From a bacterium HR10 (lineage in GTDB: Bacteria > Acidobacteriota > Blastocatellia > HR10), in assembly GCA_002923315.1 (NCBI GenBank), contig BEHM01000002.1, forward strand, positions 73,838-137,837: 64,000 nucleotides of DNA. The letters are read 5' to 3'. Position numbers and translations under genes: made by a program. Below the pieces are notes generated by a model. That model saw only the letters and a list, made by a program, of their open reading frames with translations. It made no database searches and had not been told where the DNA came from. Of this stretch, positions 587 to 55,073 are shown piece by piece. The stretch's first letter is position 1. Each line of letters begins with the position of its first letter.

Positions 587-938
587 TCACGCCCTGCCCG
601 CTCATGCGGGGCGGGGCTCTGAACGAAGACGGCGGACGCCGGAAGCGCGCGCATCGTGCTGCTCATGGTGGAGTGAGAGATACCCCCGGGACGCGGATCT
701 GCTCGCGCTCATCTGCGCTGGCAAAAATTGCCCTTGTCATTCCGAAAAAATCGGCGTAAACTTGGCGCCCCTGGGCGGCGAGGAGCGCCGAACGGGGCAA
801 GGCGTGGTCACGAGATGAGACGATCGCGCCACGCGAGGACATCTTCATAGGTCGGCATGACGTTTCACGGTGCGGCTTGGACGCCCCCGCGGGGGGGCGT
901 TCGAGGCCACCCCAGGAGCTTGGATTGGAGGGAGGACG

Positions 939-15081: not shown

Positions 15082-15807
15082 GTGTGCCCTCCCACTCCAA
15101 TCTCGACAGGGGGAGACAACGTGACTCACCCCCTGGAAGGATTACCAATGGGCTGGGAGTGTGTGACTGGGGTCAAAGGAGAACAATGGGAGGGCTTCTC
15201 TCACTGAGGTCTTGAGTGAATAGGCGCCAGCACGAACTTCGGGGACTCTCTTTCCCAGCCCGAAGCTTCGGCAGAGGAGTGACGAACGCAAGATGCGCTG
15301 TACCGTGGATGGCCGCTGCTCGGTGGGGGCCAGTGGCGAGATCATTCGCCTTAGGAAGAGGGCCAAGCTGATCCCCCTCAAAGGGCGACCATGGGGAGAA
15401 CGCATGTTCGCTCGTTCGATCAGCGAAGGCGGGTCCTATCGCCGGGGGCGCGATGAGTATCCCATTTGGCGAGAGGAAAAAGCGAGCACAATACAGGGTC
15501 GCGCTGATCGCCGCGAGAAGGACGAGCCTTCGACCGATCCACAGATTCAGCACGTACTGCAGTATATCACACTCCTCTACCACGAGCAAATTCGCCAGCC
15601 GTCGCCTTTTGTCATGCGACGAGCTCGGCCTGGTGCTCAAAAGAAGGTTTCTCCCCCGAAGAGACACGGAGTATAATCCTTGCCTTGGCGATGGAGTCCG
15701 CCGGGAACCGCCTCGAAGGGATTCGGGGCTGATGACTCCTACTTGGGCCGTTCCAAGTGGGAGTCTTTTGTTTTGGTGTCCTGGCGAGGCTGGGGAGGGA
15801 GGAAACG

Positions 15808-16215
15808 ATGGTCTTCTTCTGCCCGGGATGCTGGCGGGAGGTGGACGCTGGGTGTCGCATCTGTCCGAGCTGTGAGATGGACATCGCGCGGTACTCGCGC
15901 TCGGCGCGCTATGTGGAGAAGCTCATTTCGGCGTTGCACCATCTGGAACCTCAGACGGTGAGGCGCGCTGCCTGGATTTTGGGCCGGTTGAAGGCTCGCG
16001 AAGCTGTTCCCGCGCTGCTGGACTTGGCAGATCGGACTGCAGACCCCTACGTGATTGAATCGGTGGTGGAAGCACTCGGGGAGATCGGGGACATGCGCGC
16101 GCGGCCGTTTCTGATCCGCTGTGTGACGCAGGGGGCGTTGCGCGTGAGGCGGGCGGCGGAACGAGCGCTCGCGCAGTTTCCGCGAGAGGAGGGTGGCGCT
16201 CATGGCCCTCAATGA
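15808..16215 (+). CDS. zinc-ribbon + HEAT-repeat protein
   Basis: ATG 15808 follows GGGAGGGAGG. MVFFCPGCWREVDAGCRICPSC forms a Cys4 ribbon. HEAT/PBS-lyase-like repeats follow (VRRAAWILGRLKAREAVPALLDL..., VIESVVEALGEIGDMRARPFL, VRRAAERAL). Confidence 0.7.
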   Translation: MVFFCPGCWREVDAGCRICPSCEMDIARYSRSARYVEKLISALHHLEPQTVRRAAWILGRLKAREAVPALLDLADRTADPYVIESVVEALGEIGDMRARPFLIRCVTQGALRVRRAAERALAQFPREEGGAHGPQ

Positions 16216-20258: not shown

Positions 20259-21002
20259 ATGCGCGGACGGCTCATGTACCTGGCGGCAGCGGGGGGATGC
20301 TTTCTCCTAGCGGGTGTCGTTCTCTGGCACCACCTCCGAACACCCTCTCCGCGGGGCGGGAGACCATTGTCTGAAGCGGGGGTCTCCAACGCCTCGGTGA
20401 GAGAGGGAGCGCTGACGTTCGACGGTCGGCGAGCGCTTGAGGAGTTGGATGCGCTCCTTGACGCCGTGGAAGAGGAGGATTGGGCGCGCGCGCGGGCGCA
20501 TTTCAGCGAATTCGAACGGATCGCGCGAGCGCTCCCCTCGCCCGGATTGACGCATCCCGATGTCTCCTTCGCCCTCATGGACTTCTTCCACCTCTATCGG
20601 GTGCAACTTGAGCGCGCGCTCTCGGCCGAGGATTCAGCGGGAGCGATGTTCGCGGGCAATCAGTTGGGCGATATTGTATGGGACTTGCGCGTCCAGTTGG
20701 GGCGGGCGCCTCTGCCAGAGCTTGGGCGGCTTCGGTATCTCGAACGCGATCTCCGATATTGGAGTGAGATGGGGGATGAGCAGATGATCCGCGCGCGAGT
20801 CCGCGGTCTGGAGCGGACGTGGACCAGTCTCCGTCCGGTCGTCGCCAGCGGCCGCGGGCGAGAGTTGGTGGAACGCTTCGATGAGCTGCTGGAGCAGTTG
20901 CGGGCAGCGCGCGCGGTGGAAGAATATCGGGAGATTGCTCCAGAGCTGGAGGATATCGTTCAACAGGTTGAAGCGCATTTCTCCGAGCGGGGCGTTCGAT
21001 GA
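20259..21002 (+). CDS. membrane-anchored helical hypothetical protein
   Basis: 247 aa with an N-terminal TM helix (YLAAAGGCFLLAGVVLW). The rest looks helical. No family recognised. Confidence 0.55.
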   Translation: MRGRLMYLAAAGGCFLLAGVVLWHHLRTPSPRGGRPLSEAGVSNASVREGALTFDGRRALEELDALLDAVEEEDWARARAHFSEFERIARALPSPGLTHPDVSFALMDFFHLYRVQLERALSAEDSAGAMFAGNQLGDIVWDLRVQLGRAPLPELGRLRYLERDLRYWSEMGDEQMIRARVRGLERTWTSLRPVVASGRGRELVERFDELLEQLRAARAVEEYREIAPELEDIVQQVEAHFSERGVR

Positions 21003-21628
21003 AACTTCCGTTCGTGCCCAAGCTGATCGGATGGGTCCTGGTGGGGAGGCTCATTGGCCTCATCGGTGGGCTGGCGGCGCCCGTACCGGAGGCCGACGGA
21101 TCGTCCCCTGGCTTCGCCGCATCGGTCCTCGCCGATTTCGATGAGGATATGCACCCGGACCTGGCGCTCGCTCGGTATGAGCGACGCGGGTATCGGATCG
21201 AGGTGCATCTGAGTCGAAGGCAGAGGGAGATCTCGCTTCGTGTCCCCGCGCGCGAGTGGGGGATGATTCTGCTGGCCCTCGATGTCAATCGGGATGCGCA
21301 CCTGGATCTTGTGGCAGCGAACGCGCATCTTGTGCGTCCGTTGGCGATCTGGCTCGGCGATGGGCATGGCCACTTTCAACACGGGAGAGTGCGCGGGTGG
21401 GTATCCTCGCTCTTGCAAGCCGCGGGATATACGAAAGCTCCAGCCCGAGACCCTGACGTCTCTCTGACCTCCGAAGACCGATGGCCCTTCGATCACCCGC
21501 TCTGGAGATTCGCGAGAAATGCTCCAGAGGGTTCCATTCTCGCCTCCGCAGGGGCAGCCGCCCCTGACCTGCGTCTTCCTCATCCCTGCTTTGGTCGAAG
21601 CCCTCCTGAAAGACCTGTGTGCTTGTGA
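20999..21628 (+). CDS. hypothetical protein with FG-GAP-like motifs
   Basis: 4-nt overlap with the previous gene. N-terminal TM helix; ADFDEDMHPDLALA and LDVNRDAHLDLVAAN resemble FG-GAP Ca-binding loops. Confidence 0.5.
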   Translation: MKLPFVPKLIGWVLVGRLIGLIGGLAAPVPEADGSSPGFAASVLADFDEDMHPDLALARYERRGYRIEVHLSRRQREISLRVPAREWGMILLALDVNRDAHLDLVAANAHLVRPLAIWLGDGHGHFQHGRVRGWVSSLLQAAGYTKAPARDPDVSLTSEDRWPFDHPLWRFARNAPEGSILASAGAAAPDLRLPHPCFGRSPPERPVCL

Positions 21629-31165: not shown

Positions 31166-32608
31166 ATGTCGAAAGATTGGCGTCGGATTCTCGTGAAACT
31201 CGATGAGTATCGGTACATGATCCCGCGCACGTATAAGCCGGGCATGCAGACGGATGTGATTATCTACGTGGATGATCAGTTGCTGGAGACCGTGACGCGG
31301 GACCTCTCGCTGGAGCAGGCAGCGAACCTGGCGTTTCTGCCCGGCATCGTGGGGCGTCCGATCGTCATGCCGGATGTGCATCAGGGCTATGGATTCCCCA
31401 TCGGGGGCGTGGCCGCGACGGATGCGGAGGAAGGCGTCGTCTCGCCGGCCGGCATTGGCTTTGACATCAACTGCGGCGTGCGCCTGCTCCGCTCGGAGTT
31501 GACCGTCGAGGAGGTTCGCCCGAAGTTGGAGCGCATCGTGGAGGACCTCTTCCACGCGGTGCCCGCGGGGACGGGGCGTGAGGGGCAGATCAGCGTGAAT
31601 CGCGCGGAGATGGACAACGTATTGCGCCTGGGGGCGCAATGGGCCGTCGAGCATGGCTATGGGCGGGAGGAAGACCTCGATCATATCGAGTCGCGCGGAT
31701 GCATCCCCGGGGCGAACCCGAAGGCCGTGAGCGAACATGCCCGTCAGCGCGGGGCCGATCAGTTGGGCACGCTCGGATCGGGCAATCACTTCCTGGAGAT
31801 TCAGTACGTCGAGGAGGTCTTCGATCGCGCGGCCGCGCACGCCTTCGGGCTGCATCCGGGGCAGGTCACCGTGCTCATTCACACGGGATCGCGCGGCTTC
31901 GGCCATCAGGTCTGCACCGATTATCTGAAGGTCCTGCGTTCGGCCATGCAGAAGTACGACATTCACCTCCCCGATAAGGAGATGGCGGCCACCTACATCC
32001 GGTCCCCGGAAGGGCAGGACTACCTGGGGGCGATGAATGCGGCAGCCAATTTCGCCTTCGCGAATCGGCAGATGATCACCCATTGGGTACGGGAGGTGTT
32101 CCGAAAGCACTTCGGCGCTGGAGGGGACCTTCAGATCGTCTACGACGTCGCGCACAATATCGCTAAGTTCGAGACGCACACGATCGAAGGGAAACCGCGG
32201 CGCGTTCTGGTGCATCGCAAGGGGGCGACACGCGCGCTGCCGGCCGGGCATCCCGAACTGCACGAGCTGTATCGCCCGATCGGGCAGCCAGTGATCATCC
32301 CCGGCGATATGGGGCGCGCATCGTATGTGCTCATCGGGACGGCAGCTGAGGAGACCTTCGCCTCCAGCTGTCACGGCGCCGGACGCGTCATGTCGCGCAC
32401 GGCGGCTAAGAAGGGACGCGACATCAATCAGGTGCGGAAGCAACTGGCCGAGCGCGGCGTCCTCGTCAAAGCGGCCAGCAAAGACGGCGTGCTCGAAGAG
32501 ATCCCCGAAGCCTATAAGGACGTGAACGACGTCGCGCGTGTCGTCGAAGCGGCAGGGATCGCTCGGCGCGTCGCTCGGTTGCGCCCGATCGGCGTCGTGA
32601 AGGGATGA
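31166..32608 (+). CDS. rtcB: RNA-splicing ligase RtcB
   Basis: PDVHQGYGFPIGGV, GFDINCGVR, GSGNHFLE, HTGSRGFGHQV, SCHGAGR: the canonical RtcB metal/GTP-binding motifs. Start taken at MSKDWRRILVKLDEY. Confidence 0.92.
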   Translation: MSKDWRRILVKLDEYRYMIPRTYKPGMQTDVIIYVDDQLLETVTRDLSLEQAANLAFLPGIVGRPIVMPDVHQGYGFPIGGVAATDAEEGVVSPAGIGFDINCGVRLLRSELTVEEVRPKLERIVEDLFHAVPAGTGREGQISVNRAEMDNVLRLGAQWAVEHGYGREEDLDHIESRGCIPGANPKAVSEHARQRGADQLGTLGSGNHFLEIQYVEEVFDRAAAHAFGLHPGQVTVLIHTGSRGFGHQVCTDYLKVLRSAMQKYDIHLPDKEMAATYIRSPEGQDYLGAMNAAANFAFANRQMITHWVREVFRKHFGAGGDLQIVYDVAHNIAKFETHTIEGKPRRVLVHRKGATRALPAGHPELHELYRPIGQPVIIPGDMGRASYVLIGTAAEETFASSCHGAGRVMSRTAAKKGRDINQVRKQLAERGVLVKAASKDGVLEEIPEAYKDVNDVARVVEAAGIARRVARLRPIGVVKG

Positions 32609-32689
32609 ACGGCTGGTGAGCCGCTCTACCGTGGAAGGCGATCACGGCAAGGCGAGGTCGGAACGGGACTCTCGGAGGCAGGAACTACG

Positions 32690-33226
32690 ATGCTCAGAGT
32701 CGGAGACCCAGCTCCCGACGTGGAGTTGGCCAGTGCAGATGAGCAACGCGTGCGCCTCTCTTCGTTCTGGGCCCGTGGGCTGGTTGTTCTCGTCTTCGCG
32801 CGCCACTTCGGCTGACCGTTCTGCCGGGAACACGTCGCCGGGTTGCGACGCGATTACGAACGGTTCAAGGCGCACGGAGCGGAGATCGTGCTCATCGGCC
32901 AGGGCGATCCCGAACAGACACAGGCTTTTTGTCGGGAGCAGGATGTGCCCTTCCCCTGTCTGGCCGATCCGGAGCGAAAGGCGTATGCCGCCTATGGGCT
33001 GAGCGCGGGGACGCTCATGCAAGTCCTCGGGCCTCGGGTCTGGTGGCGGGGATTTCGCACGTGGCGAAGCGGGTATTCAGCGGGGAAGCCAATCGGAGAC
33101 GTGCGACAAATGCCCGGCGTCTTCATCATCAATCGCGCCGGGATCATTCGCTTCATTTATCGGTACCGCGATATCGCAGATAATCCTTCGAGCGAACTGT
33201 TGCTCGAGCAGCTCACGGCGATATGA
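32690..33226 (+). CDS. peroxiredoxin-like (AhpC/TSA, Prx-like2/SelU-type) thiol oxidoreductase with in-frame UGA (probable selenocysteine, U-x-x-C)
   Basis: GGAGG at 32674-32678, ATG at 32690. Translation: MLRVGDPAPDVELASADEQRVRLSSFWARGLVVLVFARHFG-TGA(32813-32815)-PFCREHVAGLRRDYERFKAHGAEIVLIGQG...PGVFIINRAGIIRF. The TGA sits where this family carries the first Cys of GCPFC. The ORF track reports only the part from TTG 32843. Confidence 0.65.
32833..32850 (+). promoter_or_regulatory. SECIS-like recoding hairpin
   Basis: CGUCGC-CGGGUU-GCGACG (6-bp stem, 6-nt loop containing GGU) begins 17 nt after the UGA. A possible lower helix is CCGUUC (32816-32821) / GAACGG (32858-32863). Confidence 0.5.
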
Positions 33227-33227
33227 A

Positions 33228-33257
33228 GGGCCGGGGCTGAGGGAAAAGCCCCGGCCC
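33228..33257. terminator. convergent-gene hairpin (bidirectional terminator candidate)
   Basis: GGGCCGGGGCT-gagggaaa-AGCCCCGGCCC (11-bp perfect stem), placed exactly between stop 33224-33226 (+) and stop 33264-33266 (-). No clear U tract. Confidence 0.55.
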
Positions 33258-33263
33258 GAAGGC

Positions 33264-35654
33264 TCATCGCTTCAGAACAAACGTCCCGTCGTCTCGGCCC
33301 AGAAGCGCGACCAGGTTTCCGACAGGGAGACCAGCGACGGCGATGTCCAGCAATCCATCGTCATTGAAGTCGCCGAGCCCCAGTGAGACCGGCTCCGCGA
33401 TTGCCCGAAGCCGCCGAACCACACGTGGTCGTCCATCCTGGAAGCCGATGAACGTGACCGAGTTGCCCGTGAAGTTGGGAACGGCCACGCCGATCACCCC
33501 GTTGAAGAAGTCACCGCTGATGATGAACGTCGGACTCTCGATCGAGGGTACGTCCACGCGCGTGAAGCCGAGACTGCGGCTCTTGCCCTGGGAAAGGAGG
33601 AAGGTGATCGAATTCGAGAGGAAATTTGCGACGGCGACGTCCATCTGGCCATCCCGGTCGAAATCGCCCGTTGCGCTGGCCATCGGATACTCGCCGACGT
33701 CTCTCCGCCCGGCTTCGCTGAAGCGACCCCGGCCGTCTCCCTTGAAGAAGACGACCTCATTGGAGCCAATCGCCGTCACGATCAAATCCGGGACTCCGTC
33801 TTCATCCCAGTCCGCGACGACAACCGAGCTGGGCCTCCCATCAAACAGTGGAATGGTCGCCAGCGGGCGGAACGTCCCGTCGCCTCGGCCAAGCAGGATG
33901 GCGATGTCCGCCGATCCATTCTGCGCGACGGCCAGATCGAGCACCCCATCCTGATCGAAGTCGGCCAGAGCGACGGCGACAGGCTTTGTGCCGAAGAGTT
34001 GCAGCTGGCGCCCTTTCTGGAACGTCCCATCCCCATTGCCGAGGAAGATGGAGAGGCTGTCCGAGAGCGAGTTCACGACGACAGCATCGGTCTTGCCATC
34101 GTGATTGAAATCGCCCGCTTTCACGTCCACAGGACTCTGACCCGTACCGTAGGTCTTGAACCGTCGGAAGGTGCCATCGCCTTTGGAGAGGTAGACGCGC
34201 AATTGGTTCGACTCGGAGTCCACGAGCAACACGCCTTTGGGGACCGGCGCTGAGGCTGTCGTCTCACTGGCCGTCCGAATCGCACTGGCAGCGATGAACG
34301 CCGTTCCCACCGTGCTCGGCCGTCCGCGACTCGAAATCGAAGCGCTCGCTTGCTGAACGAAGGTGGGGGGACAACCGGGACGATCTCTGCCACCGCAGGG
34401 GTCGGGAGACCCCCAGGTTAATTCAACGGAGTTCATGAGCGGACCATGTCCGGTCGCGACGGCCGTGATGGTGATGGTGACGCTGGAGTGAGGCCCAACG
34501 CTTCCGCGGATGATGAGCTGGCCGTTTTGCACGCTCACCCATTGGGGCGGCGAAGCGGAGATCAGCTCCATGCCTGAGGGCATCTGCTCGACGAGGCTGA
34601 ACAACTGCGCCGTCGCACCGCTGTTGGCCACGGTGATCGTGCACGTGACCGGGAAGCCGGCAGCTACCGTCTTCGGCTCGCATCTCTTGGTCACCGAGAG
34701 ATTGGGTTTGCCCCCTCCGCCACTTCCACCGCCACCCTTGCACTCGTTCTCGTACGCGCATCGGAAGCCTTGGAAGACGCATCCTTTACCCGGCGGTTCG
34801 ACTATTTCCGGGTCCAAAAGCCATACGGGCTCATCAACAATGCCTCCAGAGGGGCACCGATCGGTACGGGTCAACGGCACATCTTCTGCTGCGCCGTCAC
34901 ATTCCCAGCGTGCCCAACACTGGCTCCTGAGGAAGGCACATTGGGGGGGGGTAGGAGGGACAAGAAAGTCCCTGTACGAAAGACAAATAGGCTCAGGAAG
35001 GATCCCCCCGATCGCCCCTGTACCCCCAAGAGTTGAGACATTGAACCGGCTTAGCGCACAAATGTTCCTCCCGGGATCGGGGCGGGCACAAGAGTAGGGA
35101 ATCATGAACGTCCCGTCGCCTCCATATACCCTTTTCTGGATCTCGATGGGAATCCCACCAGGAGCTTGATCGCGTGCCGGAGCATTCGTGAACGTGCACC
35201 AGACGGTTTGTCCCGGGTCAAGACGTGGGCCGCACATTTCAGGATCACCCAGCCTTCTGCCAGTTCTACAGAAGACATTCACCGTGCATTCAGGGCCGCT
35301 CAGCAGTTGCCATCCTGATGGGGGAGTCTCCACGATGTAGTACTGGCCGGGGATGAGGGGGACGGACTTGAAGGCGACCAAGGGGCATCCCCCTTTTGGC
35401 GTGAAGAAATCGTTGGGTTCAAGACCAACAACTGCTATCCACTGCCCGTTCTCGTCATAGATGTCGAAGCGAAAGCTGTCAGGGCTGCCACCTTGAATAC
35501 ATTTCTGCACGTACAAGGTCGCTGGCTCTTGGGCTGAGGCCATGAGCGAGTCACTCGGTCGCGAAGACCCCCAGATGAGGAATCCAAGGACGGCCACGGT
35601 GAGAAAAAGCCGCTGCCTGTGGCGTCGGCTTCTGGCACTCCTCAGTTGGTCCAT
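33264..35654 (-). CDS. secreted surface protein: prealbumin-fold module, Cys-rich region, Gly linker, DUF11-like module, C-terminal FG-GAP/VCBS propeller
   Basis: AAGGAGGAGG lies before the ATG. Signal-like LFLTVAVLGFLIWG. YYIVETPPSGWQ...TVWCTFTN is the same module type as in the giant protein. GGGGSGGGGK linker. LSVTKRCEPKTVAAGFPVTCTITVANSG is DUF11-like. Repeated GDFNHDGKTDAVVVN, ADFDQDGVLDLAVAQ, ADWDEDGVPDLIVTA, GDFDRDGQMDVAVAN, GDFNDDGLLDIAVAG motifs. Confidence 0.85.
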   Translation of the reverse strand: MDQLRSARSRRHRQRLFLTVAVLGFLIWGSSRPSDSLMASAQEPATLYVQKCIQGGSPDSFRFDIYDENGQWIAVVGLEPNDFFTPKGGCPLVAFKSVPLIPGQYYIVETPPSGWQLLSGPECTVNVFCRTGRRLGDPEMCGPRLDPGQTVWCTFTNAPARDQAPGGIPIEIQKRVYGGDGTFMIPYSCARPDPGRNICALSRFNVSTLGGTGAIGGILPEPICLSYRDFLVPPTPPQCAFLRSQCWARWECDGAAEDVPLTRTDRCPSGGIVDEPVWLLDPEIVEPPGKGCVFQGFRCAYENECKGGGGSGGGGKPNLSVTKRCEPKTVAAGFPVTCTITVANSGATAQLFSLVEQMPSGMELISASPPQWVSVQNGQLIIRGSVGPHSSVTITITAVATGHGPLMNSVELTWGSPDPCGGRDRPGCPPTFVQQASASISSRGRPSTVGTAFIAASAIRTASETTASAPVPKGVLLVDSESNQLRVYLSKGDGTFRRFKTYGTGQSPVDVKAGDFNHDGKTDAVVVNSLSDSLSIFLGNGDGTFQKGRQLQLFGTKPVAVALADFDQDGVLDLAVAQNGSADIAILLGRGDGTFRPLATIPLFDGRPSSVVVADWDEDGVPDLIVTAIGSNEVVFFKGDGRGRFSEAGRRDVGEYPMASATGDFDRDGQMDVAVANFLSNSITFLLSQGKSRSLGFTRVDVPSIESPTFIISGDFFNGVIGVAVPNFTGNSVTFIGFQDGRPRVVRRLRAIAEPVSLGLGDFNDDGLLDIAVAGLPVGNLVALLGRDDGTFVLKR

Positions 35655-41957: not shown

Positions 41958-42989
41958 TCACCTCGCTCGTGTCGGTTGAGATGTCGCTCGCCCTCGCGTT
42001 CGCCTCTCGAGGACTCTCGCCTCGCGCGGTCGTGTGGGCGCCGCAGCGCGTCGCGGCTCGGGGAGTCGAACCACGACGCGCGCGGGTTGCGAGACGTCAA
42101 TGTAGCTGATCGTCACATCTTCTTGCAGGAGTTCCGCCGTCGGCGCGACGCCCAAGCGCTGCAGTTCTGCCGCGTCTTGCTTCTTCACCGCGCTCAGAAT
42201 CTGCAGGCTCAGCTCGAAGCGCCGCCGGAAATCCCGATCGCCCAGATGAATCCACGTCATGGGGCTCTCAGTGAGGTTCACCGTGACGTTCTTCAGGTCG
42301 CGGATGTTCACCTGATCCACACGATCCCAATAGCTCAGCGGGGGCGCGCTCAGCTCCTTCTGAAGCTGGAGGTAGAGCGCCACGCGCTGCTGATTCTCGG
42401 CCACCGCCAGATCCGACCCCTCCTCGTTCCAGCCGACCAGCAACGGGAGCGTACGCGACCCGAGCAGATGGAAATCGCCGATGATGACGCCCTCCTCGTC
42501 CACGCACACGAGCGCCCCTTTCTGTTGCACGAGGGCGACGGGCGCGCGCTCGCGCACGTGCACGCGCAGCTCATCGGGCAAGACGCGCGTGATCTCCACG
42601 TCCTTGATGAGGGGATGTCGCCGCAACTCGGCGCGGAGCGCGCGCAGGTCGGCGCGCAGCACCCCCTCCGGGGTCGCGCCGCGGATGATCGCTTCGATCT
42701 CTCGGGTCGTGACGCGCTCCGCGCCCGTGATCCGAACGGTCTTCACATGGAACGCTGAGGCGTTCATGAACGCATAAGCGGCGAAGCCACAGGCGCCCAG
42801 TCCAGCGAACAGCAGGAGCGCGCGAGGGACGACCCGCAGGCGTTCGCGCAGCCGCAGGTTCGCCGCGCGCGTTGTCCGCTCGAGCTCGCGCCCGAGATCG
42901 CCGGCGAAGCGCGTCCGGCGCGCCCCGCGTCCCCGCGTCCGGCGCGCCCGTGGCATGACGACTTGGTTCACGCGCGTGAGCATGCTCAT
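41958..42989 (-). CDS. ftsQ: cell division protein FtsQ (POTRA)
   Basis: Basic N-terminus, one TM helix ([17 protein letters not shown]), a POTRA-like [23 protein letters not shown], and its position in the dcw cluster. Confidence 0.85.
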
Positions 42990-44383
42990 CTCTCCTGAGC
43001 CGTGGTCTCTGACGGTCGCTGAAGAGCGATCACCAGCCGATCGGCCGCCTGCGTGACGCTGCCCGCCCCGAGCGTCAGCAGCAGGTCTCCCGGACGGAGA
43101 ATGGCGCGCGTGGCGGCGATGGCCGCCTCCAGATCGCCCACGTACTGCGCTTGCCGGTGCCCGAACTCCCGAAGCCGCTCGACGAGCCGTTCGGCTGTGA
43201 CCCCTTCGATCGGATCCTCCCCCGCCGCGTAGATGTCGGTGACGAGCACGACGTCTGCGTCATAGAACGCGCGCGCGAAATCATCCAGCAGCCGCTGCGT
43301 CCGCGTGTACCGATGTGGTTGGAAGAGGACGACCACGCGCCGCCCCGAGAGCCGCGCCGTCGCCAACGTCGCTTTGATCTCCGTCGGATGATGGCCGTAA
43401 TCGTCCACCAGGAGCACTCCGCCCACCTCGCCCTTCACCTGGAAGCGGCGATCCACGCCTCGAAAATCGGCGAGCGCAGCGGCGATCGTCTCAAAGGGGA
43501 TCTCCAGATCGAGCCCCACGGCGCAGGCGGCCAGCGCGTTCTCCACGTTGTGCATCCCGGAGAGGTTCATGCGCGCGCGCCCCAGCACCTCGCCGCGCCA
43601 TCGCACCGCGAACGCCATGTGGAAGCAATCGGGCATCTCGATCTCCGTGGCTGAGACCTCGGATTGCGAGGAGAGGCCGTAGGTGATCACCTTCCTCGCG
43701 ATGCGCGGCAAAATCGCCTGCACATTCTCGTCGTCCAGGCAGACGATGACCGAACCGTAGAAGGGCACGCGATTCGCGAATTCGGCGAAGGCCTCGCGCA
43801 ACTCCAGGAGATCGGCGTAATGATCCAGATGCTCGCGATCAATATTGGTGATGACGGCGAACGTGGGCGAGAGCTTCAGGAACGAGCGATCGCTCTCATC
43901 CGCCTCGACGACCATGAAGTCGCCGCGGCCGAGCTTGGCGTGGCTGTCAATAGCGCGCAACCGTCCGCCGACGACGATCGTCGGGTCTAAACCGGCGTGC
44001 GCGAGCACGGTGGCGATCATCGAGGTCGTCGTCGTCTTCCCGTGTGATCCGGCCACGGCGATGCTGTACTTCAAGCGCATCAGTTCGGCGAGCATCTCCG
44101 CGCGGGGGATGACGGGGATCTGCCGCGCGCGCGCCGCCACGAGTTCGGGATTCTCCGGGCGAACGGCCGTGGAGTAGACGACGACGTCCGCCTCGCCGAT
44201 ATTCTCCGCGCGATGGCCGATGGCGATGCGCGCCCCCAGTCGTTGCAGGCGTTCCACAATGGGCGACATGCGCAGATCCGATCCCGAGACGCGATAGCCG
44301 AGATTGAGCAGCAACTCGGCGATGCCGCTCATGCCCGCGCCTCCAATGCCCACCAGATGGATCGTGCGAATACGTCTCAGCAT
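42986..44383 (-). CDS. murC: UDP-N-acetylmuramate--L-alanine ligase
   Basis: [42 protein letters not shown]. Start at MLRRIRT (44383); the track start at 44440 would overlap murG heavily. Confidence 0.95.
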
Positions 44384-45549
44384 CGCTGCTCCTTCGCACA
44401 GCGCATCGGCTGGCGCTCGCCTCGGATCGTCTTCTCGCAAGACGCCACCTCAAGGGCGAGCGCCACGAGGGCCTCCGCCGCTTCCGGCCGCGCGCGCTGG
44501 CGCATGCGGTCGGCCATCGCCTCCAACTGCGCCGTGTCTTCCAGAAGCTCGCGCATCATCTCGGCCAGGCGCTCGGGTGTCGCCTCGGCTTGCAGTACAC
44601 AGCGCGCCGCGCCGGCCCGCTCCACGGCCTCTGCATTCTTGCGCTGATGGTCATCGGCCGCCGTCGGCAGCGGGATCAAGATCGCCGGTTTTCCAGCGGC
44701 CGCCAACTCGGCCAGCGTTGTCGCCCCAGCGCGGCAGATGACCAGATCGGCGCGCGCCATCTCTTCAGCCATGTGCTCGATGAAGGGCAGAACCGTGACG
44801 CGCTCCTGAAGGCCCGCCCGCTCGTACGCCGCCCGCACCCACGCGAAGTCGCGCTCCCCCGTCTGATGCGTCGCCGTGATCTGGAGCGGCGATCCGCGCT
44901 CCCGTACGAGCGCCAGGAGTCGCGGCAGCGCATCCACCAGCCGCTCGTTGAGCGCGCGCGATCCTTGGCTGCCGCCGAAGATGAGCAGATGGCGCGTCGG
45001 ACGCTGTCGGCGACGCTCGCGCGCCAGATCAGGCGTGGTGAAGAATTCCGGTCGGACCGGATTCCCCGTCACGCGCGCCTTCGCCCCGAAGACGCGCGCG
45101 GCCTCGGGGAAGGCTACAGCCACGGCACGCACCCACGGCGCGAGCACGCGGTTGGTGAAGCCCGGGGCGGCGTTCGGTTCGAGGATGAGCGTCGGGATCC
45201 CCATGAGCGCCGCCATGAGCACAACGGGGCCGGAGGTGTATCCCCCGATGCCGATGACCACATCGGGACGACGCCGGCGCAGGATGCGCCAGGACTGCCA
45301 CAGACTCTTCGGGACGAGCCAGAACAGGGTCAGGAGCGCTTGTCGCCACCCCACGCGCTTCAAGCCCGCGATCTCGATCTGCTCCAGCGCGAATCCCGCG
45401 CGCGGCACCACCGTCACTTCCACGCCGCGAGCCGTCCCCACGAACGTCACCTCCGTCGCCGGATCGCGTCGCCGGAAGGCCTCGGCGAGGGCGAGTCCGG
45501 GGAAGAGATGTCCGCCCGTCCCGCTCGCGGCGATGAGCACCCTACACAT
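44377..45549 (-). CDS. murG: undecaprenyldiphospho-muramoylpentapeptide beta-N-acetylglucosaminyltransferase
   Basis: [53 protein letters not shown]. Confidence 0.95.
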
Positions 45550-46738
45550 CGTCCGGCCTCGCCTGTTGCGCGATGTTGAGCATCACGCCGATCTCCACCA
45601 TCGTGATCAGGAGCGATGACCCACCATAGCTGATCAGCGGCAGCGGCGTCCCCTTCACCGGGAAGAGGCCCGTGGCGACGCTCATGTGAACCAGGGCCTG
45701 GATGAGGATCGCCGCGACGATCCCGCTGCCGAGCAACATCCCGAATGTATCGGGCGCTCGCCCGGCGATGCGCATCCCGCGCCAGAGGAGAAAGCCGAAA
45801 GCCAACAGCACCGCGCTCGTGCCAATCCATCCCAGCTCCTCGCCGATATGCGCGAAGATGAAATCCGTGTGCAGCTCCGGCAGGAAGAAGAGCTTCTGTT
45901 TCCCTTGCGCGAAGCCGACCCCGGTGATCCCCCCGCTGCCGAGCGCGATGAGCGATTGGATGGTCTGAAAGCCGCTCCCTCTCGGGTCCTGCCACGGGTC
46001 GAAGTAGGTGAGGATGCGTTCCCATCGCCAGTCCACTCGAACGATGAGCCACGCGAGTAGGGGAATCGCTCCCACGCCGAGCATCGCTTGATGTCGGAGG
46101 GGCACCCTCACGATGAAGAACATCACCAGCAGGATGAGCCCGAGTGAGAGGGCCATGCCCAGATCCGGCTCCAGCGCCACCAGCCCCATCATCGCGCCCG
46201 CCACCAGCGCGCACGGCAGGAACGTCAGCTCGGCGCGCTTGATCCCCGCCGGAATCCGCCGATCCAGGTGCGCCGCGAGAAAGACGATCAACACAAAGCG
46301 CGCCAGCTCCGACGGCTGAAACGAGAGGAATCCCCATCGAATCCATCGGTGCGCGCCGTTGACAGGGGGGAAGAAGAAGACGGCCACAAGCAGCAGCAGC
46401 GTCCCGATCACCAGCAGCGCCAGCAGTCGCGGGTGTTGGTAGAGGTGATAATCCACGCGCATGGCGACAAGTAGCGCCAGGAAGGCGATCATCGCCCACG
46501 CGGTCTGCCGCGCGAGGAAGTAATACTGCGTCCCATAGCGTTCGGCCGCCAGCACCGCCGATGCGCTGTAGACCATCACGATGCCGAAGAGGGTGAGCGC
46601 GACGACCAGCGTGAAGAGCGTTCTGTCCCCAATCCCCGTGCGCTCGCGATCCCCCGCGCGTTCGGCATCCCCCCACGCGATCGGGAGATCGCGGATGGCC
46701 AGTCGCATCCCTGGACGGTTTCGCCGCGCCTTCACCAT
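45542..46738 (-). CDS. ftsW: SEDS peptidoglycan glycosyltransferase FtsW
   Basis: Polytopic membrane protein; FQPSELARFVLIVFLAAHL, LEPDLGMAL, LPELHTDFIFAHIGEELG, PLPLISYGGSSL. Start at MVKARRN (46738, overlapping the murD stop). The track ORF from 46930 is over-extended. Confidence 0.9.
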   Translation of the reverse strand: MVKARRNRPGMRLAIRDLPIAWGDAERAGDRERTGIGDRTLFTLVVALTLFGIVMVYSASAVLAAERYGTQYYFLARQTAWAMIAFLALLVAMRVDYHLYQHPRLLALLVIGTLLLLVAVFFFPPVNGAHRWIRWGFLSFQPSELARFVLIVFLAAHLDRRIPAGIKRAELTFLPCALVAGAMMGLVALEPDLGMALSLGLILLVMFFIVRVPLRHQAMLGVGAIPLLAWLIVRVDWRWERILTYFDPWQDPRGSGFQTIQSLIALGSGGITGVGFAQGKQKLFFLPELHTDFIFAHIGEELGWIGTSAVLLAFGFLLWRGMRIAGRAPDTFGMLLGSGIVAAILIQALVHMSVATGLFPVKGTPLPLISYGGSSLLITMVEIGVMLNIAQQARPDDV

Positions 46739-48195
46739 CGGTCCCCTCCTTCGCGCGGAGCCGCTGACGATTCTTCGGCGAGCCGCCGCACGGCGTCCTT
46801 GAAGACCCGCCCTCGGTGCTCGAAGTTCTCGAACATGTCGAAGCTCGCGCACGCGGGAGAGAGCACCACCGCCATTCCCGGCCGCGCCAGCTGTCGAGCC
46901 GCGCGCACCGCCTCCTCCAGCGTCGCACAACGCGTCATCGGCACCACATCCTCAAGCGCTGCGCGAATCTTCTCCGCCGCTTCGCCGAGCACCAGCACGT
47001 GCGCGACGCGCTCGGCCACCGCAGGGCGCAACCGCGTGAAGTCATCGCCCTTGTCGCGCCCGCCCAGGATGAGGACCAGAGGTCCATCGAGAGCCTCAAG
47101 CGCCACAAGCGTCGAAGCGACGTTCGTCGCTTTCGAATCGTTGTAGTAGTCCACGCCCTCAATCCGCGCGACCCACTCCAGCCGATGCTCGACGCCGGGG
47201 AACGCGCGCACGGCCTCGCGCACCGGGAGCACGCGCGCGAGCGCGACGGGGCGCGCCTCCGGTTCATCGCGCGGATCCATGAGGCTCGCTCCCGCGAGCA
47301 TCGCCCCGATCGCCGCCAGCGCATTCTCCACGTTGTGCAGGCCCCGCAGCGGAATGTCCGACCGATGCGCGAGGATGTGCTCGTGCTCCCCCCATCGAAG
47401 GACGATCTCCTCTCCCCGGAGGAGGACGCCGCATTCAATCCGCGCGTCCGCCTGGCGGCTGAACAAGAGCACGCGGGCGCGCGTCGCCTCCGCCATGGCG
47501 CGCACAATAGGATCGTCGGCGTTCAGCACGGCCCAATCCTCCTCGGTCTGGTTCCGGAAGATGCGGCGCTTGGCCGCGATGTACGCTTCCAGACTCCCGT
47601 GGCGATCCAAGTGATCCGGGGCGATGTTCGTCACCACGGCGACGCGCGGGCGCAGCGTTTGAATCGTCTCCAGTTGAAAACTGCTCAGCTCGGCCACGAC
47701 CACACACCGCGCGTCATGCACCTCCTCGATGACGCGCACGAGCGCGCGCCCGATGTTGCCGCCCACATGCGCGCAGTAGCCGCAACGCGCGAGCAGATCC
47801 CCGATCCACGCCGTCACCGTCGTCTTCCCATTGGTCCCGGTGACGCCGATGAGCAGACCCTTCAGGAAGCGGGCGGCCAATTCCACCTCCCCGAGAATGG
47901 GGACACCCGCCCGGCGGGCTTCCGCGAGCGCGTCGAGCGTCGGGGGCACGCCCGGACTCAAGACGATCAGATCGGCCGCGCGCAGCAGCTCCGGCGGATG
48001 TCCTCCCGAGACGATCTCGACGCCCAGCGCGCGCAAGGTCGCCAGATGTTCGCGCGCGCGCCCAAGCTCGGCCTCCGTCTTCGCATCGGTCGCGATGACG
48101 CGTGCGCCGCGACGCGCGAGGAACTCGCTCGCGGCCACGCCGCTCTCGCCCAGCCCTATGACCACGATGGTCTTCCCCCGAACGTCCACGCTCAT
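46732..48195 (-). CDS. murD: UDP-N-acetylmuramoylalanine--D-glutamate ligase
   Basis: [51 protein letters not shown]. The 864-aa track ORF (to 49326) runs on through the mraY region in another frame. True start ATG 48195 overlaps the mraY stop (ATGA). Confidence 0.93.
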
Positions 48196-49316
48196 CGCAA
48201 TTTCAACGTCGAGAGGCTGAGAAGCGCGAACAGAATCGCGATGATCAGGAACCGGAAGACGATCTTCGGTTCCTTCCATCCGAGCAGCTCGAAGTGATGA
48301 TGGAGCGGCGCCATCTTCAAGAGCCGACGTCCGCGTCCGGTCATCCGCCGCGTGAGCTTGAAATAGGCGACCTGCGCCATCACTGAGAGCGCCTCCAGGA
48401 CGAAAATGCCCCCGATGAGCACCAGCAGCAGCTCCTGCTTCACCATCACGGCCACCGTCCCGATCGAGCCCCCGAGCGAGAGGCTCCCCACATCCCCCAT
48501 GAAGACCTCGGCCGGCGGCGCGTTGAACCAGAGGAATCCCAGACAAGCCCCCGAGAGCGCTCCGCAGAAGACCGTCAGCTCGCCCACCTCCGGCATGTAC
48601 TCGATGTTCAAATAGCGAGCGAATTCGGCATGCCCGGTCACATACGTGAACCCCGTCAGCGCCGCCATCGTGATGAAGGCGATGCTGATGGCCAAGCCAT
48701 CCAGACCATCGGTCAGATTCACCGCATTGGAGGATCCGACGATCACCAGCGACATGAAGATCAGATAGAGCGCCACAGGCAGCTCGGGCCGAAAGCGTTT
48801 GAAGAAGGGGACGCTGAGGACCAGCGAGTAATCGAGGCCATAGACGAGGGTCAGCCCGATCATCACGCTGATGGCGCTTTGCGCCAGCAGCTTCTGCCGG
48901 CCTGTCAGTCCGAGTGAACGCCGCTGCACGATCTTCAGGTAATCGTCGAGGAAACCGATCAGCCCGAAGAGCACCAGCGCCGCCAGCGCCAACCACACAT
49001 AGCCATTGCGCAAGTTCCCCCAGAGGAATGTCCCGAGCAGGACCGACACGATGATGAGCACCCCACCCATGGTCGGCGTCCCGCGCTTGGCCTGATGCAA
49101 CGCCGGTCCCTCCTCGCGGATCGGTTGCCCGATCTGACGCTCGCCGAGCTTGCGAATGAACCATCCACCGAGCACGAGACTGATGAGGAGCGCCGTGATG
49201 GCCGCATAGGCCGTGCGAAACGTGATGTAGCGGAAGACGTTCAGCGGATCGAGCCACGGATGGAACCGATCGTGATAGTGCACGTACAAGACTTCGTAGA
49301 GCAGATAGCGCAACAT
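48192..49316 (-). CDS. mraY: phospho-N-acetylmuramoyl-pentapeptide transferase
   Basis: [46 protein letters not shown]. Confidence 0.97.
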
Positions 49317-49322
49317 GTCGCG

Positions 49323-50735
49323 TCACCGCGCCTCCTCTCCATGAGCGAGGGCTCGCCGAAGCGTCTCCAGAGCGCGCTCCATACCCACGGCGCGTGACCC
49401 TTTGATGAGGATCACATCACCCGGCTGCACATGCTCGGCTAACCACCGCCCCGCCTCTTCCGGCGTCTCCAGGAAGAGGGCCGCCTCCAGTCCGGCCTCG
49501 CGCGCCCCTTCGACCAGCTCGCGCGCCAGGCCGCGCACGCCGACCAGCAGGTCTACGCCGAGGCGAGCGATCTCCTGCCCGCACTCCCGATGCATCGCGG
49601 CCGCGCGCTCGCCCAATTCCAGCATCTCCCCGGCGGCGATCACGCGCCGTCGCGCGCTCTCGATCTCACGCAGCGTCCGCGCCATCTCCAGCAGCGAGCG
49701 CGGATTGGAATTGTACGAATCGTCAATCACGACGATCCCGCGCGGGAGGCGCACGACCTCCCCGCGCCGCGCATACGGCGCGACCGTCGCCAAAGCATCG
49801 GCGATGACCGCGAGCGGCACGCCGCAGACATCGGCCACAGTCGCCGCGGCCAGAATGTTCATCACCTGATGCCGCCCAAGGAGCGGCGTCCGCACGCGCA
49901 CCTCTCCTGAGGGCGTGATCAGCGTGAACGCCATCCCGTCCAGTTCGAGCGCGCGGATGTCACGGGCGCGCACGTCCGCCTCGTTCTCGATCCCGAACGT
50001 GCGCACGGCGATCGGCCGCCGCCATCGCATCCGAGCGACGAGCGGATTATCCGCATTCAGCACGGCGAGCCCATCTTCGGGAAGGGCGTCCACCAATTCC
50101 GCCTTCGCCTCCGCGATGGCTTCCACCGAGGGGAAGAATTCCAGATGCACGGCGCTCACGGTCGTCACCACGCCGATATTCGGTCGAGCGATCGTGCTCA
50201 GGTGCGTGATCTCGCCAGGGCCGCTCATGCCCATCTCCAGGACGGCGTAGTGAACGTCCTCGGGCGACCTCCCTTCGGAGATCAAGCTGAGCAGCGAGAG
50301 GGGCAGGCCATAGATGTTGTTGTAGTTGCCGATGGTCTTGATCACCCGATACCCCCCGGCTTCCAATAAACGCGCCACCAGCTCCTTAGTCATCGTCTTC
50401 CCCGAACTGCCCGTGATGCCGATGACCGTGCGCCCCCAGCGCGCGCGCGCCACGCGCGCCAGCTCGCCGAGCGCCCAGAGCGTATCCCGAACGCGAATCG
50501 TGCGCTCGATCGGCACATCGCCGGGGACTTCTGAGACGACAGCCGCGCAGGCTCCCTTCTGAAGCGCCTCCAGCACGAAGGCGTGGCCATCGCGCGCGCG
50601 CCCTTTGATGGCGAAGAACAGTTCTCCAGGCCGAATCGTGCGCGAATCAATGGAGAAGCCGCACGGCTCCTGCTCAGCGATCTCCGGCGCCGGCGGCAGC
50701 ACTCCCCAGATCTCAGCCATCTCGCGCAGTCTCAT
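49323..50735 (-). CDS. murF: UDP-N-acetylmuramoyl-tripeptide--D-alanyl-D-alanine ligase
   Basis: GITGSSGKTMTKE, DDSYNSNP, GEMLELG, ILIKGSRAVGME. Confidence 0.93.
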   Translation of the reverse strand: MRLREMAEIWGVLPPAPEIAEQEPCGFSIDSRTIRPGELFFAIKGRARDGHAFVLEALQKGACAAVVSEVPGDVPIERTIRVRDTLWALGELARVARARWGRTVIGITGSSGKTMTKELVARLLEAGGYRVIKTIGNYNNIYGLPLSLLSLISEGRSPEDVHYAVLEMGMSGPGEITHLSTIARPNIGVVTTVSAVHLEFFPSVEAIAEAKAELVDALPEDGLAVLNADNPLVARMRWRRPIAVRTFGIENEADVRARDIRALELDGMAFTLITPSGEVRVRTPLLGRHQVMNILAAATVADVCGVPLAVIADALATVAPYARRGEVVRLPRGIVVIDDSYNSNPRSLLEMARTLREIESARRRVIAAGEMLELGERAAAMHRECGQEIARLGVDLLVGVRGLARELVEGAREAGLEAALFLETPEEAGRWLAEHVQPGDVILIKGSRAVGMERALETLRRALAHGEEAR

Positions 50736-52234
50736 CCTCCTCCTCCGAATCGTTCCCGCAAGGCCGCGCGCGCGACCTCACGGTCGTCGAAGGGGATCAC
50801 GCGGTCTTTGAGAATCTGATACGTCTCGTGCCCCTTGCCCGCGATCAAGACGATGTCCCCGGGCTCGGCCAAGGTGATCGCCATCCGAATGGCCTCACCG
50901 CGATCCACGATCCTCACGTATGGCGTGCTCGTGCGCCGCAATCCCTCCTCGATCTCCGCGATGATGGCTTCCGGGTCCTCCGAACGCGGATTATCCGAAG
51001 TCACGATCACCAGGTGCGAGAGCGCGCCCGCCGTCTCCCCCATCGGCGCGCGCTTGCGCCGATCGCGATCGCCGCCGCATCCGAAGACGGTGAGGATGCG
51101 CCCCCCAGTGGAGAGCGCACGCATGAGGTCTCGCGCCGTGTCGAGCAGATTCCGCAACGCATCCTCCGTGTGCGCGTAGTCCACCACGACCAGGAATGGA
51201 TGCTCGGGCCCAGAGACGACCTCCAGTCGTCCCGGCACCGGAGGACATGCCTCGATCCCCCTGGCGATCACCTCCGGCGAGAATCCGAGCGCGAGTCCGG
51301 TGGCGATCGCCGCCAGGATGTTCTTGACATTCGGACGCCCGATGAGCCGGGAGCGCACGGCGATCTCCCCCCGCGGCGTGCGCGCCGTGAGCCGCAGCCC
51401 GTCCAGGGAGAAGGCGACGTCTTTGACGAAGACGTCGCCTGAGGTCTCGCCATAGGTGAGCACGCGTCCGCGCGAGACGGCGATCAGCTCCGCCGCGCGC
51501 GCATCGTCTCTGTTGAGGATGGCGATCTCGGGCGCCTTTCCAAGCGTGCCATCGAAGAGCTTGCGCTTGGCGGCGAAGTACGCCTCCATCGTCCCGTGAA
51601 AGTCTAGGTGCTCGGGCGTGAGATTCGTGAAGACGGCGGCCGTGAACTCGCAGCCGTGCACGCGCCGAAGTTCGAGCGCGTGCGAGGAGACCTCCAGCAC
51701 GGCGTAGCGGCATCCGGCCTCCACCGCGCGTCGGAGGAAGCTCTGGACCTCCGGCGCTTCCGGCGTCGTGCGCTCGGCCGCGACCTCTTCCTCGCCGATC
51801 GTATATGTGGTCGTCCCCCAGCGCGCCGATCGCTCTCCCGCCGCGCGGATCACGGCGTCAATCAGATAGGTCGTCGTCGTCTTGCCATTGGTTCCCGTCA
51901 CGCCGATGAGCGTGAGCGCGCGCGAGGGGTAGTCGTAAAAGGCGAGCGCCAGTTCGGCCAACGCTCGCCGCGCGTCTTCGACCTGCAACCACACGCGCGG
52001 GAAATCCGATAGAGGCGGTTGCTCGGAGACGATGGCCACTGCGCCGCGCGCGAGGGCCTCGGGGATGAAGGCATTCCCATCCCGCTGGAACCCCCGGATG
52101 GCGACAAAGAGGCTACCCGGCACAACCCGCCGCGAGTCATACGCGATGGCCGTCACGCGTTCCTCGAGGAGCCGCCCGAAAACTCGGGCGCGCGTCACCT
52201 CGGCGGCCTGTTTGAGCGTCATGCCCATCATCAT
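50732..52234 (-). CDS. murE: UDP-N-acetylmuramoyl-L-alanyl-D-glutamate--2,6-diaminopimelate ligase
   Basis: [46 protein letters not shown]. Start at MMMGMTLKQ (ATG 52234 overlaps the ftsI stop). The track ORF to 53356 is over-extended. Confidence 0.93.
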   Translation of the reverse strand: MMMGMTLKQAAEVTRARVFGRLLEERVTAIAYDSRRVVPGSLFVAIRGFQRDGNAFIPEALARGAVAIVSEQPPLSDFPRVWLQVEDARRALAELALAFYDYPSRALTLIGVTGTNGKTTTTYLIDAVIRAAGERSARWGTTTYTIGEEEVAAERTTPEAPEVQSFLRRAVEAGCRYAVLEVSSHALELRRVHGCEFTAAVFTNLTPEHLDFHGTMEAYFAAKRKLFDGTLGKAPEIAILNRDDARAAELIAVSRGRVLTYGETSGDVFVKDVAFSLDGLRLTARTPRGEIAVRSRLIGRPNVKNILAAIATGLALGFSPEVIARGIEACPPVPGRLEVVSGPEHPFLVVVDYAHTEDALRNLLDTARDLMRALSTGGRILTVFGCGGDRDRRKRAPMGETAGALSHLVIVTSDNPRSEDPEAIIAEIEEGLRRTSTPYVRIVDRGEAIRMAITLAEPGDIVLIAGKGHETYQILKDRVIPFDDREVARAALRERFGGGG

Positions 52235-54294: not shown

Positions 54295-55073
54295 GGCTCA
54301 CCTTGCTTGGACGGTCTTCGCCGCTTCGGTGCCGCATCTTCCGACGAGACGTGGGATCGCTCCGGTGAGGATGTTCCTCCACCCGCGTCCGATCCTCTCA
54401 CCGCAGGTTCCCTCTCACTCTCCACTGTCGTATCGTGCTCGGCGTGAGACCCCGCCGCCTGGGGGGCTCGTTCCGCTCCCGCGCCATCGTCGCTTGGCGC
54501 GACCGATCGCGCGCGATGTGGCCGCCGCACCGTGCGCACGCCTTCCGATCGCGCCGCTCCTCGTGGCCCGGAGAGCAGAGGCGAGGGAGCAGGCTCACCC
54601 GTCCCCTTCTCAAAGCTCAGGGCGGATGCCCCCTGCAGCTCGATCTCGCGTGAAGGCGGCGTGGGGACCCCCTTCCCGATCACGATCACTTGCGAGGGAT
54701 CGGGACGAATGAGCCCAAGCCGCCGAGCCAGTGGCTCGATCACTTGTGGCGACCGATAGTACGCGCGCTCCGATTCCAACTGCCGCTTCAACGCCTCCAA
54801 TCGCTCGCGCTCGCGCACGAGTTGGTTCAGCCGATAGCCGTAGCGCAACGCTTCGACATGTTGCCACGTCGCCACAATGAGCGAGAGGGCGACAAGACCC
54901 ACGATCCCCAGCACAAGGGCTACGCGATGACCCGCCCGCTGATCCGTTCGGTGTGGAACCTGAGCATTTGAGACGCGCACATGCCGTGTCATCTCGTCCT
55001 CCGTCATGCGACGTTCACAGCTTGAGCTTCTCGCCGGATCCCTTCCGTTCATCCACAAGACTCGCGCGATCAT
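54291..55073 (-). CDS. ftsL: FtsL-like cell division protein with long low-complexity C-terminal tail
   Basis: Position between rsmH and ftsI. One TM helix (VALVLGIVGLVALSLIVATW) plus a coiled coil (YGYRLNQLVRERERLEALKRQLESERAYYRSPQVIE). About 130 extra P/A/S/G/R-rich residues. Alternative start at ATG 55007. Confidence 0.7.
   Translation of the reverse strand: MIARVLWMNGRDPARSSSCERRMTEDEMTRHVRVSNAQVPHRTDQRAGHRVALVLGIVGLVALSLIVATWQHVEALRYGYRLNQLVRERERLEALKRQLESERAYYRSPQVIEPLARRLGLIRPDPSQVIVIGKGVPTPPSREIELQGASALSFEKGTGEPAPSPLLSGPRGAARSEGVRTVRRPHRARSVAPSDDGAGAERAPQAAGSHAEHDTTVESEREPAVRGSDAGGGTSSPERSHVSSEDAAPKRRRPSKQGEP

Follow-up and report, generated by a model that had tools for sequence, protein, structure and literature searches.

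The stretch of 64,000 nucleotides (nt) analysed here (the window; bacterium HR10, contig BEHM01000002.1) contains, at positions 32690-33226 of the plus strand, a reading frame that is interrupted by a TGA codon and most likely codes for a selenoprotein. We assign a probability of about 0.9 to the reading that the whole of 32690-33226 is one gene for a thioredoxin-fold, 'peroxiredoxin-like' redox protein, in which the first active-site cysteine is replaced by selenocysteine (Sec; U42-P-F-C45). With the same confidence, and on the strength of sequence comparison, we assume that the TGA at 32813-32815 is a genuine Sec codon.

Reading frame and conservation across the in-frame UGA

The frame that opens at ATG 32690 has a single internal stop, TGA 32813-32815, and comprises 178 sense or Sec codons up to the next stop, TGA 33224-33226. 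It reads ...VLVFARHFG-TGA(32813-15)-PFCREHVAGLRRDYERF..., with Sec as residue 42, the U of the motif G-U-P-F-C. A Shine-Dalgarno-like GGAGG (32674-32678, plus strand) lies 11 nt 5' of the start codon; a purine-rich stretch is present 5' of the conserved ATG in all seven orthologues described below, and the remaining spacer between rtcB, the upstream gene, and the selenoprotein gene is not conserved. The GGAGG, the start codon, the TGA and the 178-codon frame had been given in the original prediction, and each matches the sequence. The list of open reading frames (ORFs) cuts the gene into two pieces of the same frame, 32690..32815 (41 amino acids, aa) and 32843..33226 (plus strand, 127 aa). This bears out the claim that the downstream fragment, which begins at a TTG, is in frame with the TGA; it is the ORF that gene callers report and represents an annotation artefact, not a separate gene. 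A truncated automated annotation had likewise been expected, and the best match in the protein database is the 127-aa 'hypothetical protein HRbin10_00288 [bacterium HR10]', which shows a single mismatch, the TTG start given as Met. The nearest homologues in the same database (P0001-P0010, P0013 and P0078; 55-99% identity) are all fragments of 112-128 aa, and full-length homologues have been called only at 49% identity or less. The called starts of the fragments vary among the orthologues, and the stretch from the TGA to these starts is kept in frame.

Seven distinct loci with the TGA (the window, L001, L002, L004, L006, L007 and L008) were collected from the contigs of the fragment proteins. 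These orthologues are syntenic, 63-79% identical, and have the TGA at the same codon in seven of seven cases, in the context RH[FY]G-TGA-PFCR. The 40-41 codons in front of it are conserved as well, beginning at a conserved ATG. Selection was estimated by Nei-Gojobori counts over the 21 sequence pairs from the seven orthologues. For the 39 codons 5' of the TGA, the proportions of synonymous (pS) and nonsynonymous (pN) differences were 0.63 and 0.23 and the ratio of nonsynonymous to synonymous change (dN/dS) was 0.20; for codons +14 to +130 after the TGA dN/dS was 0.145. Both halves are thus translated in one frame and are under purifying selection at near-saturated synonymous sites, which excludes a pseudogene. 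A lack of conservation 5' of the TGA had been named as an observation that would speak against Sec, and the N-terminal 41 codons turned out to be conserved as protein. The same had been said of a TGC or TGT in place of the TGA. Three assemblies from separate runs (DRR101361, DRR101362 and DRR101365) show TGA and are identical to the window through the TGA and the hairpin region, and this excludes an assembly error. TGA also acts as a normal stop in the window, where it terminates rtcB (32606-32608) and the selenoprotein gene itself, and a genome-wide reassignment of TGA is therefore excluded.

Two of the loci found in these searches deserve a separate remark. The 55% identical P0078 (L010:343-732, on a contig of 1161 bp) is missing the entire N-terminal redox half, with a stop upstream of it and a gene on the opposite strand abutting it, which may reflect a real truncation or an assembly chimera. 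The contig of L007/L011 (CAZTMT010000007.1) is titled 'uncultured Clostridia bacterium', and its RtcB is ≈94% identical to that of the window and of loci from metagenome-assembled genomes (MAGs) of Acidobacteriota. The rtcB-selenoprotein locus is so close to the latter that the Clostridia label looks doubtful.

The position of the TGA is informative when the wider family is considered. A scan of one genome per species gave 70 loci with relatives of the protein, and the active-site column of these is occupied by TGA in eight and by Cys (TGC or TGT) in 62. The TGA loci are of the Acidobacteriota type (L011, L012) or come from Dehalococcoidia (L013, L014) and Chloroflexi (L030, L031, L033, L039). 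The Cys loci are spread over Chloroflexota, Armatimonadota, Bacteroidota, Planctomycetota and other phyla, and in them the UGA column is the first Cys of G-C-P-F-C. A scan of metagenomes with the DNA pattern F-G-TGA-P-F-C-R returned at least 120 stretches, and at least 85 TGA forms matched the family profile across the TGA (E < 1e-10). The original prediction that Sec stands in place of the first Cys of a CxxC motif is in agreement with these pairs, and the alignment of homologues that it had proposed as a check shows Cys or TGA in one column with conserved flanks on both sides. In a rough neighbour-joining tree Sec and Cys forms are intermixed and the window clade is found among other Sec forms; since the search patterns biased the sampling, the tree is indicative only. 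Among the metagenome loci (L081-L200), Sec forms are common in soil, sediment and freshwater.

The SECIS-like hairpin

Downstream of the UGA the RNAalifold consensus of the seven orthologues contains a hairpin (32831-32852, plus strand) that resembles a selenocysteine insertion sequence (SECIS). Its arms CGUCGC (32833-38) and GCGACG (32845-50) enclose the loop CGGGUU (32839-44); the stem starts 17 nt and the loop 23 nt after the TGA, and an additional C-G pair (32831/32852) follows past a 1x1 mismatch below the core stem. The hairpin sequence, the coordinates, the G-rich loop and the spacing of ≈23 nt had been described correctly from the letters alone. For bacterial SECIS elements a model (bSECIS; PMC13188914) demands a loop of 3-9 nt, a stem of 4-16 bp, a G in the first two loop positions, a spacing of 16-37 nt from the UGA and a folding energy of -7.5 kcal/mol or lower. 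The window hairpin agrees with this model in all four constraints (6-nt loop, 6 bp, 23 nt, -8.2 kcal/mol) and has a G at loop position 2, followed by another G, so the SECIS-like character that had been claimed for it is upheld by this check. Rfam reports no SECIS family at the hairpin.

The upper hairpin is 100% paired in seven of seven orthologues, the sole change being U-A to U-G in two of them. Across the hairpin codons +6 to +12 (H-V-A-G-L-R-R) pS falls to 0.12, compared to 0.87 just upstream and 0.63-0.68 elsewhere. Synonymous change is thus nearly abolished over the hairpin, which indicates an RNA constraint on top of the coding constraint. Together with the TGA shared by seven of seven orthologues and the coding selection on either side of it, this greatly exceeds what chance would produce. 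A lower helix between 32816-21 (CCGTTC) and 32858-63 (GAACGG), which had been suggested as possible, is complementary in the window; over the orthologues it is only 64% paired, with four of the six pairs broken in several of them, and it was dropped as unconserved.

The family as a whole provides a second line of evidence. Of 78 metagenomic Sec forms, 60 carry a hairpin with a loop that begins at a distance of 25 nt from the UGA; 51 of these loops read AGUU and three GGUU. The Gln-Leu codons CAG-UUG make up the AGUU loop at 25 nt. The stems are highly varied (UGGCGC/GCGCCA, CCUCGUCC/GGACGAGG, GUUGUGC/GCACAAC and UCUCGC/GCGAGA, for example). In an ungapped alignment of 79 sequences the 8-bp stem was paired in 78.8% of the cells, a value that none of 500 shuffles (59.2 ± 1.5%) reached. 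Two-sided changes were found in 127 cells where 56.8 were expected, and the covariation score was 0.504 versus 0.206. Controls with a slid register were paired at only 34-55%, and Cys forms in the same columns at 33-46%, save for one U-A pair that is determined by the coding sequence. The bSECIS model describes 10 of 13 Sec forms but only 5 of 61 Cys forms. The 3' arm of the window clade begins at the same nucleotide as that of the family hairpin, the G of the Leu codon UUG, whereas Gln CAG is changed to Gly GGG and the 5' arm has moved by 2 nt, which results in the 6-nt loop. We conclude that the element of the window clade is a re-registered variant of the family AGUU-loop hairpin.

Protein family, proposed mechanism and alternatives

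For profile searches with the 178-aa product, Sec was written as Cys. The protein matches Pfam AhpC-TSA (PF00578) over residues 4-155 (E = 2e-25; 89.5 bits, gathering threshold 26) and AhpC-TSA_2 (PF13911) over residues 52-160 (E = 3e-19; 69.8 bits, threshold 27). It reaches 174.3 bits with NCBIfam NF040769, 'SelL-related redox protein' (cutoff 120), over profile positions 2-172 of 173. The score for ResA (NF002854) was 44.4 bits, far below the cutoff of 170 and with only the CxxC region aligned, and those for the NCBIfam peroxiredoxin equivalogs were far under their cutoffs. The label 'SelU-type' in the original prediction holds only in part: PF13911 does match, but the curated NCBI model that the protein passes is the SelL-related one. 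No signal or anchor sequence is evident, as the protein begins at the conserved MLxVGDPAPD strand.

Among solved sequences, BCP-type peroxiredoxins and ResA come closest. The CPFC of the Sec-as-Cys sequence is aligned to CPHC of ResA (3c71, E = 6.5e-9), and in the match to Bcp4 (3hjp, E = 3e-9) Sec lines up with the conserved Thr and Cys45 with the peroxidatic position. The canonical peroxiredoxin motif PxxxTxxC is absent; the corresponding residues A-R-H-F-G-U-P-F-C have Arg at the Pro and Sec at the Thr. A structural model of a Cys homologue (P0011, 49% identical; pLDDT 93) has a BCP/PrxQ-like fold, and Foldseek relates it to Bcp4 (3hjp, E = 3e-13, TM 0.73/0.88) and also to 3drn and 5enu. 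In this model the equivalent Cys is located immediately N-terminal to the active-site helix 42-53. The selenoprotein is thus 'peroxiredoxin-like' in fold, yet features a thioredoxin-type CxxC box, as described for the Prx-like class (PMC4989117).

From these features we infer the following course of events. With the ribosome at UGA 32813-15, the hairpin 32833-50 would be positioned at the mRNA entrance and expose its G-rich apical loop from 23 nt after the UGA. The loop would recruit SelB-GTP-Sec-tRNASec, and Sec would be inserted at residue 42 instead of termination. Sec42, presumably at the N-terminus of the first active-site helix, could then act as the nucleophile on an oxidised substrate, which may be a disulfide, a sulfenate or a peroxide. 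A selenenylsulfide between Sec42 and Cys45 as the resolving residue would be formed and subsequently be resolved by a thiol reductant. Judged from the family, the chemistry would follow the CxxC type of thioredoxin and ResA and not the canonical TxxC peroxidatic cycle.

Several results weigh against Sec at this position. Neither selA, selB, selD nor a tRNA-Sec was found in the 64-kb window or the fetched flanks: no tRNA was detected by ARAGORN in the window or in 16 loci, no SelA, SelB or SelD by Pfam among the 40 window ORFs scanned, and tblastn with an approximate E. coli SelD query matched only a PurM in L007. The hairpin taken by itself is unremarkable in GC-rich sequence, since the 76-nt region folds no better than shuffled sequences (z = 0.25) and ≈7-9% of segment shuffles also yield a hairpin that fits the model. 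Thermodynamic stability was dropped as evidence for this reason, and also because Cys forms of high GC content fold no less stably than Sec forms. Within the window clade no two-sided pair changes occur in the hairpin of the seven orthologues, only U-A to U-G, and the register is not the usual one of the family, the loop having 6 nt and lying at 23 nt where AGUU has 4 nt and lies at 25 nt.

Indirect support for the use of Sec in the lineage is provided by a second gene in the contig of a relative. At L008:5841-6416 (plus strand), ≈4 kb from the orthologue, an AhpD-like protein (TIGR01926 'peroxidase-related enzyme', 165 bits) has a TGA at a Cys position, C-F-Y-TGA(6084-6086)-V-E-A-H. Gene callers split this gene into 81-aa and 59-aa genes, with the TGA in frame with the downstream fragment, and many fragments of 105-108 aa from the same family exist in Acidobacteria MAGs. 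The best 120 matches to the AhpD-like protein of L008 included none from HR10. Scans of the window and the loci for further in-frame TGA genes, with filters for GC content at third codon positions (GC3) and for redox motifs, were too noisy in DNA of 64% GC; only the target gene and the AhpD-like gene of L008 stood out. Sec use is documented in Acidobacteria and Chloroflexi (PMC1794560).

Among the alternatives, reading of the UGA by a near-cognate or suppressor tRNA (for Trp, Cys or Arg), with the hairpin slowing the ribosome or being idle, fares best, although we consider it very unlikely. It would be compatible with the lack of Sec machinery in the 64-kb window. All orthologues have a C directly 3' of the UGA, which is a leaky stop context. 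However, such readthrough would leave unexplained why TGA is restricted to redox Cys positions: it stands precisely in the catalytic Cys column and alternates with Cys across the family, and in a relative another gene likewise has TGA in the place of a catalytic Cys. The hairpin, moreover, agrees with a SelB-type model in the composition of its loop and in its distance from the UGA, and covaries family-wide. Slightly less probable still is a split gene, in which a peptide of 41 residues and a separately initiated C-terminal protein (from TTG 32843 or later) are produced and perhaps assemble. Gene callers yield precisely these two ORFs, but the called C-terminal starts (112-128 aa) are not conserved, and translation would skip the codons between the TGA and these starts (PFCREHVAGLRR), the most conserved part of the gene, in which the second active-site Cys lies; the split would also remove the catalytic residue itself. 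A pseudogene, in which a former Cys codon has suffered a nonsense mutation, or an error of sequencing or assembly has a negligible probability. In its favour, the TGA is only one base away from TGC/TGT and the public annotation has the gene truncated. This reading is effectively refuted by the seven orthologues, which share the TGA, have diverged at synonymous sites to the point of saturation (pS about 0.65) and show dN/dS of 0.15-0.20 on either side of the TGA, and by three identical assemblies from separate runs.

Genomic neighbourhood, known relatives and significance

The gene for the RNA ligase RtcB (31166..32608, plus strand; NCBIfam and Pfam RtcB matches) ends 81 nt upstream of the selenoprotein gene. 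The same gene is found directly upstream in eight of eight acidobacterial orthologous loci (the window, L001, L002, L004, L006, L007/L011, L008 and L012). The adjacency is confined to this clade, and a family-wide link to rtcB was rejected. Among the acidobacterial loci RtcB is 85-95% identical, compared to only 63-79% for the selenoprotein. No promoter-like site and no terminator-like site on the plus strand were found in 32400-33400, and the two genes are probably co-transcribed. RTCB-type ligases have an active-site Cys that is prone to metal-induced oxidative inactivation, against which PYROXD1 protects in animals (PMC12263435). By analogy, the selenoprotein might be a dedicated redox partner of RtcB in these thermophiles, an idea that we regard as speculative and rather improbable; if it were true, a Sec-based CxxC protein would do the job of PYROXD1 as a bacterial 'RtcB guardian'. 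In four of the loci (the window, L001, L002 and L006) rtcB is accompanied by divergently oriented genes for a histidine kinase and a sigma-54 response regulator.

Downstream, an FG-GAP/CLIPPER gene (33264-35654, minus strand) is convergent with the selenoprotein gene. A GC-rich 10-bp inverted repeat between the two (GGGCCGGGGC / GCCCCGGCCC, 33228..33257), a part of which scored as terminator-like on the minus strand, is probably a terminator hairpin common to both genes. FG-GAP proteins recur in the window, at 20999-21628 and in the convergent gene just mentioned, and a predicted surface protein of 1750 aa (870-6122, plus strand) combines FG-GAP with SpaA/prealbumin-like repeats. A fluoride riboswitch (15678-15748, plus strand; Rfam RF01734, 52.4 bits) is followed on the same strand by an ORF for 152 aa (15757-16215) with two CxxC pairs and then helical repeats, which is no obvious crcB or fluoride exporter. 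The dcw cluster (42986-56474, minus strand) comprises mraZ, mraW and genes whose products match domains of Mur ligases and of MurG (glycosyltransferase 28). As is usual in DNA of 64% GC, several of its maximal ORFs spuriously run upstream into their neighbours.

Peroxiredoxin (Prx)-like selenoproteins with a UxxC motif have appeared in catalogues from the mid-2000s onwards, under the names 'Prx-like thiol:disulfide oxidoreductase' (PF00578) and 'Prx-like 1'; Global Ocean Sampling (GOS) data contain 225 Sec sequences of 'Prx-like 1' (PMC1794560, PMC2398784). A review of 2026 tabulates these selenoproteins as well (PMC13188914). Since this kind has long been catalogued and the protein passes a curated NCBI profile, the window gene is a member of a known family that is currently mis-annotated. 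It shares with bacterial Prx-like UxxC selenoproteins the AhpC/TSA domain, the in-gene SECIS hairpin directly downstream and the abundance of Cys homologues, a likeness by description. Unlike these proteins in general, the window clade is made up of thermophilic Acidobacteriota-like MAGs, is always found beside rtcB and has the re-registered hairpin with a 6-nt loop at 23 nt. What is modestly new is that the acidobacterial clade keeps the gene strictly beside rtcB and that its SECIS is re-registered.

The likeness to other systems is partial. NF040769 takes its name from a relation to animal selenoprotein L (SelL), with which the protein shares a Prx-like thioredoxin fold and a redox box that contains Sec (PMC2398784, PMC4989117); animal SelL, however, has two Sec (UxxU) and a eukaryotic SECIS in the 3' untranslated region (PMC4989117), whereas the window protein combines a single Sec (UxxC) with an in-frame hairpin of the bacterial type. 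The match to PF13911 is shared with PRXL2/SelU (CDD PRX_like2, cd02970), and the Cys homologues are named 'peroxiredoxin-like family protein' or, in one case, 'prostamide/prostaglandin F2alpha synthase', which again recalls PRXL2/SelU. The sole cd02970 selenoprotein in PMC13188914 is of the UxxS type, in contrast to UxxC here; SelU proper was compared by description. Canonical peroxiredoxins (BCP/PrxQ, AhpE) are the closest solved folds and differ in the PxxxTxxC motif, and Sec-containing Prx (TxxU) have Sec at another position (PMC2398784, Table 2), while Sec of the window protein is on the Thr column. The alignment of CPFC to the CPHC box of ResA/TlpA suggests the same N-terminal-nucleophile chemistry, although ResA is membrane-anchored and extracytoplasmic and the window protein has no evident signal or anchor.

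The general understanding of selenoproteins is unchanged by the window gene. The record of HR10 and those of all close relatives, however, hold a fragment of 112-128 aa without the catalytic half, and a correction restores a complete redox enzyme. The family-wide set (at least 85 Sec forms, AGUU loop 25 nt after the UGA) represents a covariation-supported bacterial SECIS that overlaps conserved codons, and could be used for the training of selenoprotein and SECIS predictors; the re-registered hairpin of the window clade shows how a SECIS drifts while it also codes for protein. For the organism, the finding implies that a hot-spring, Acidobacteriota-like lineage decodes UGA as Sec and needs selenium.

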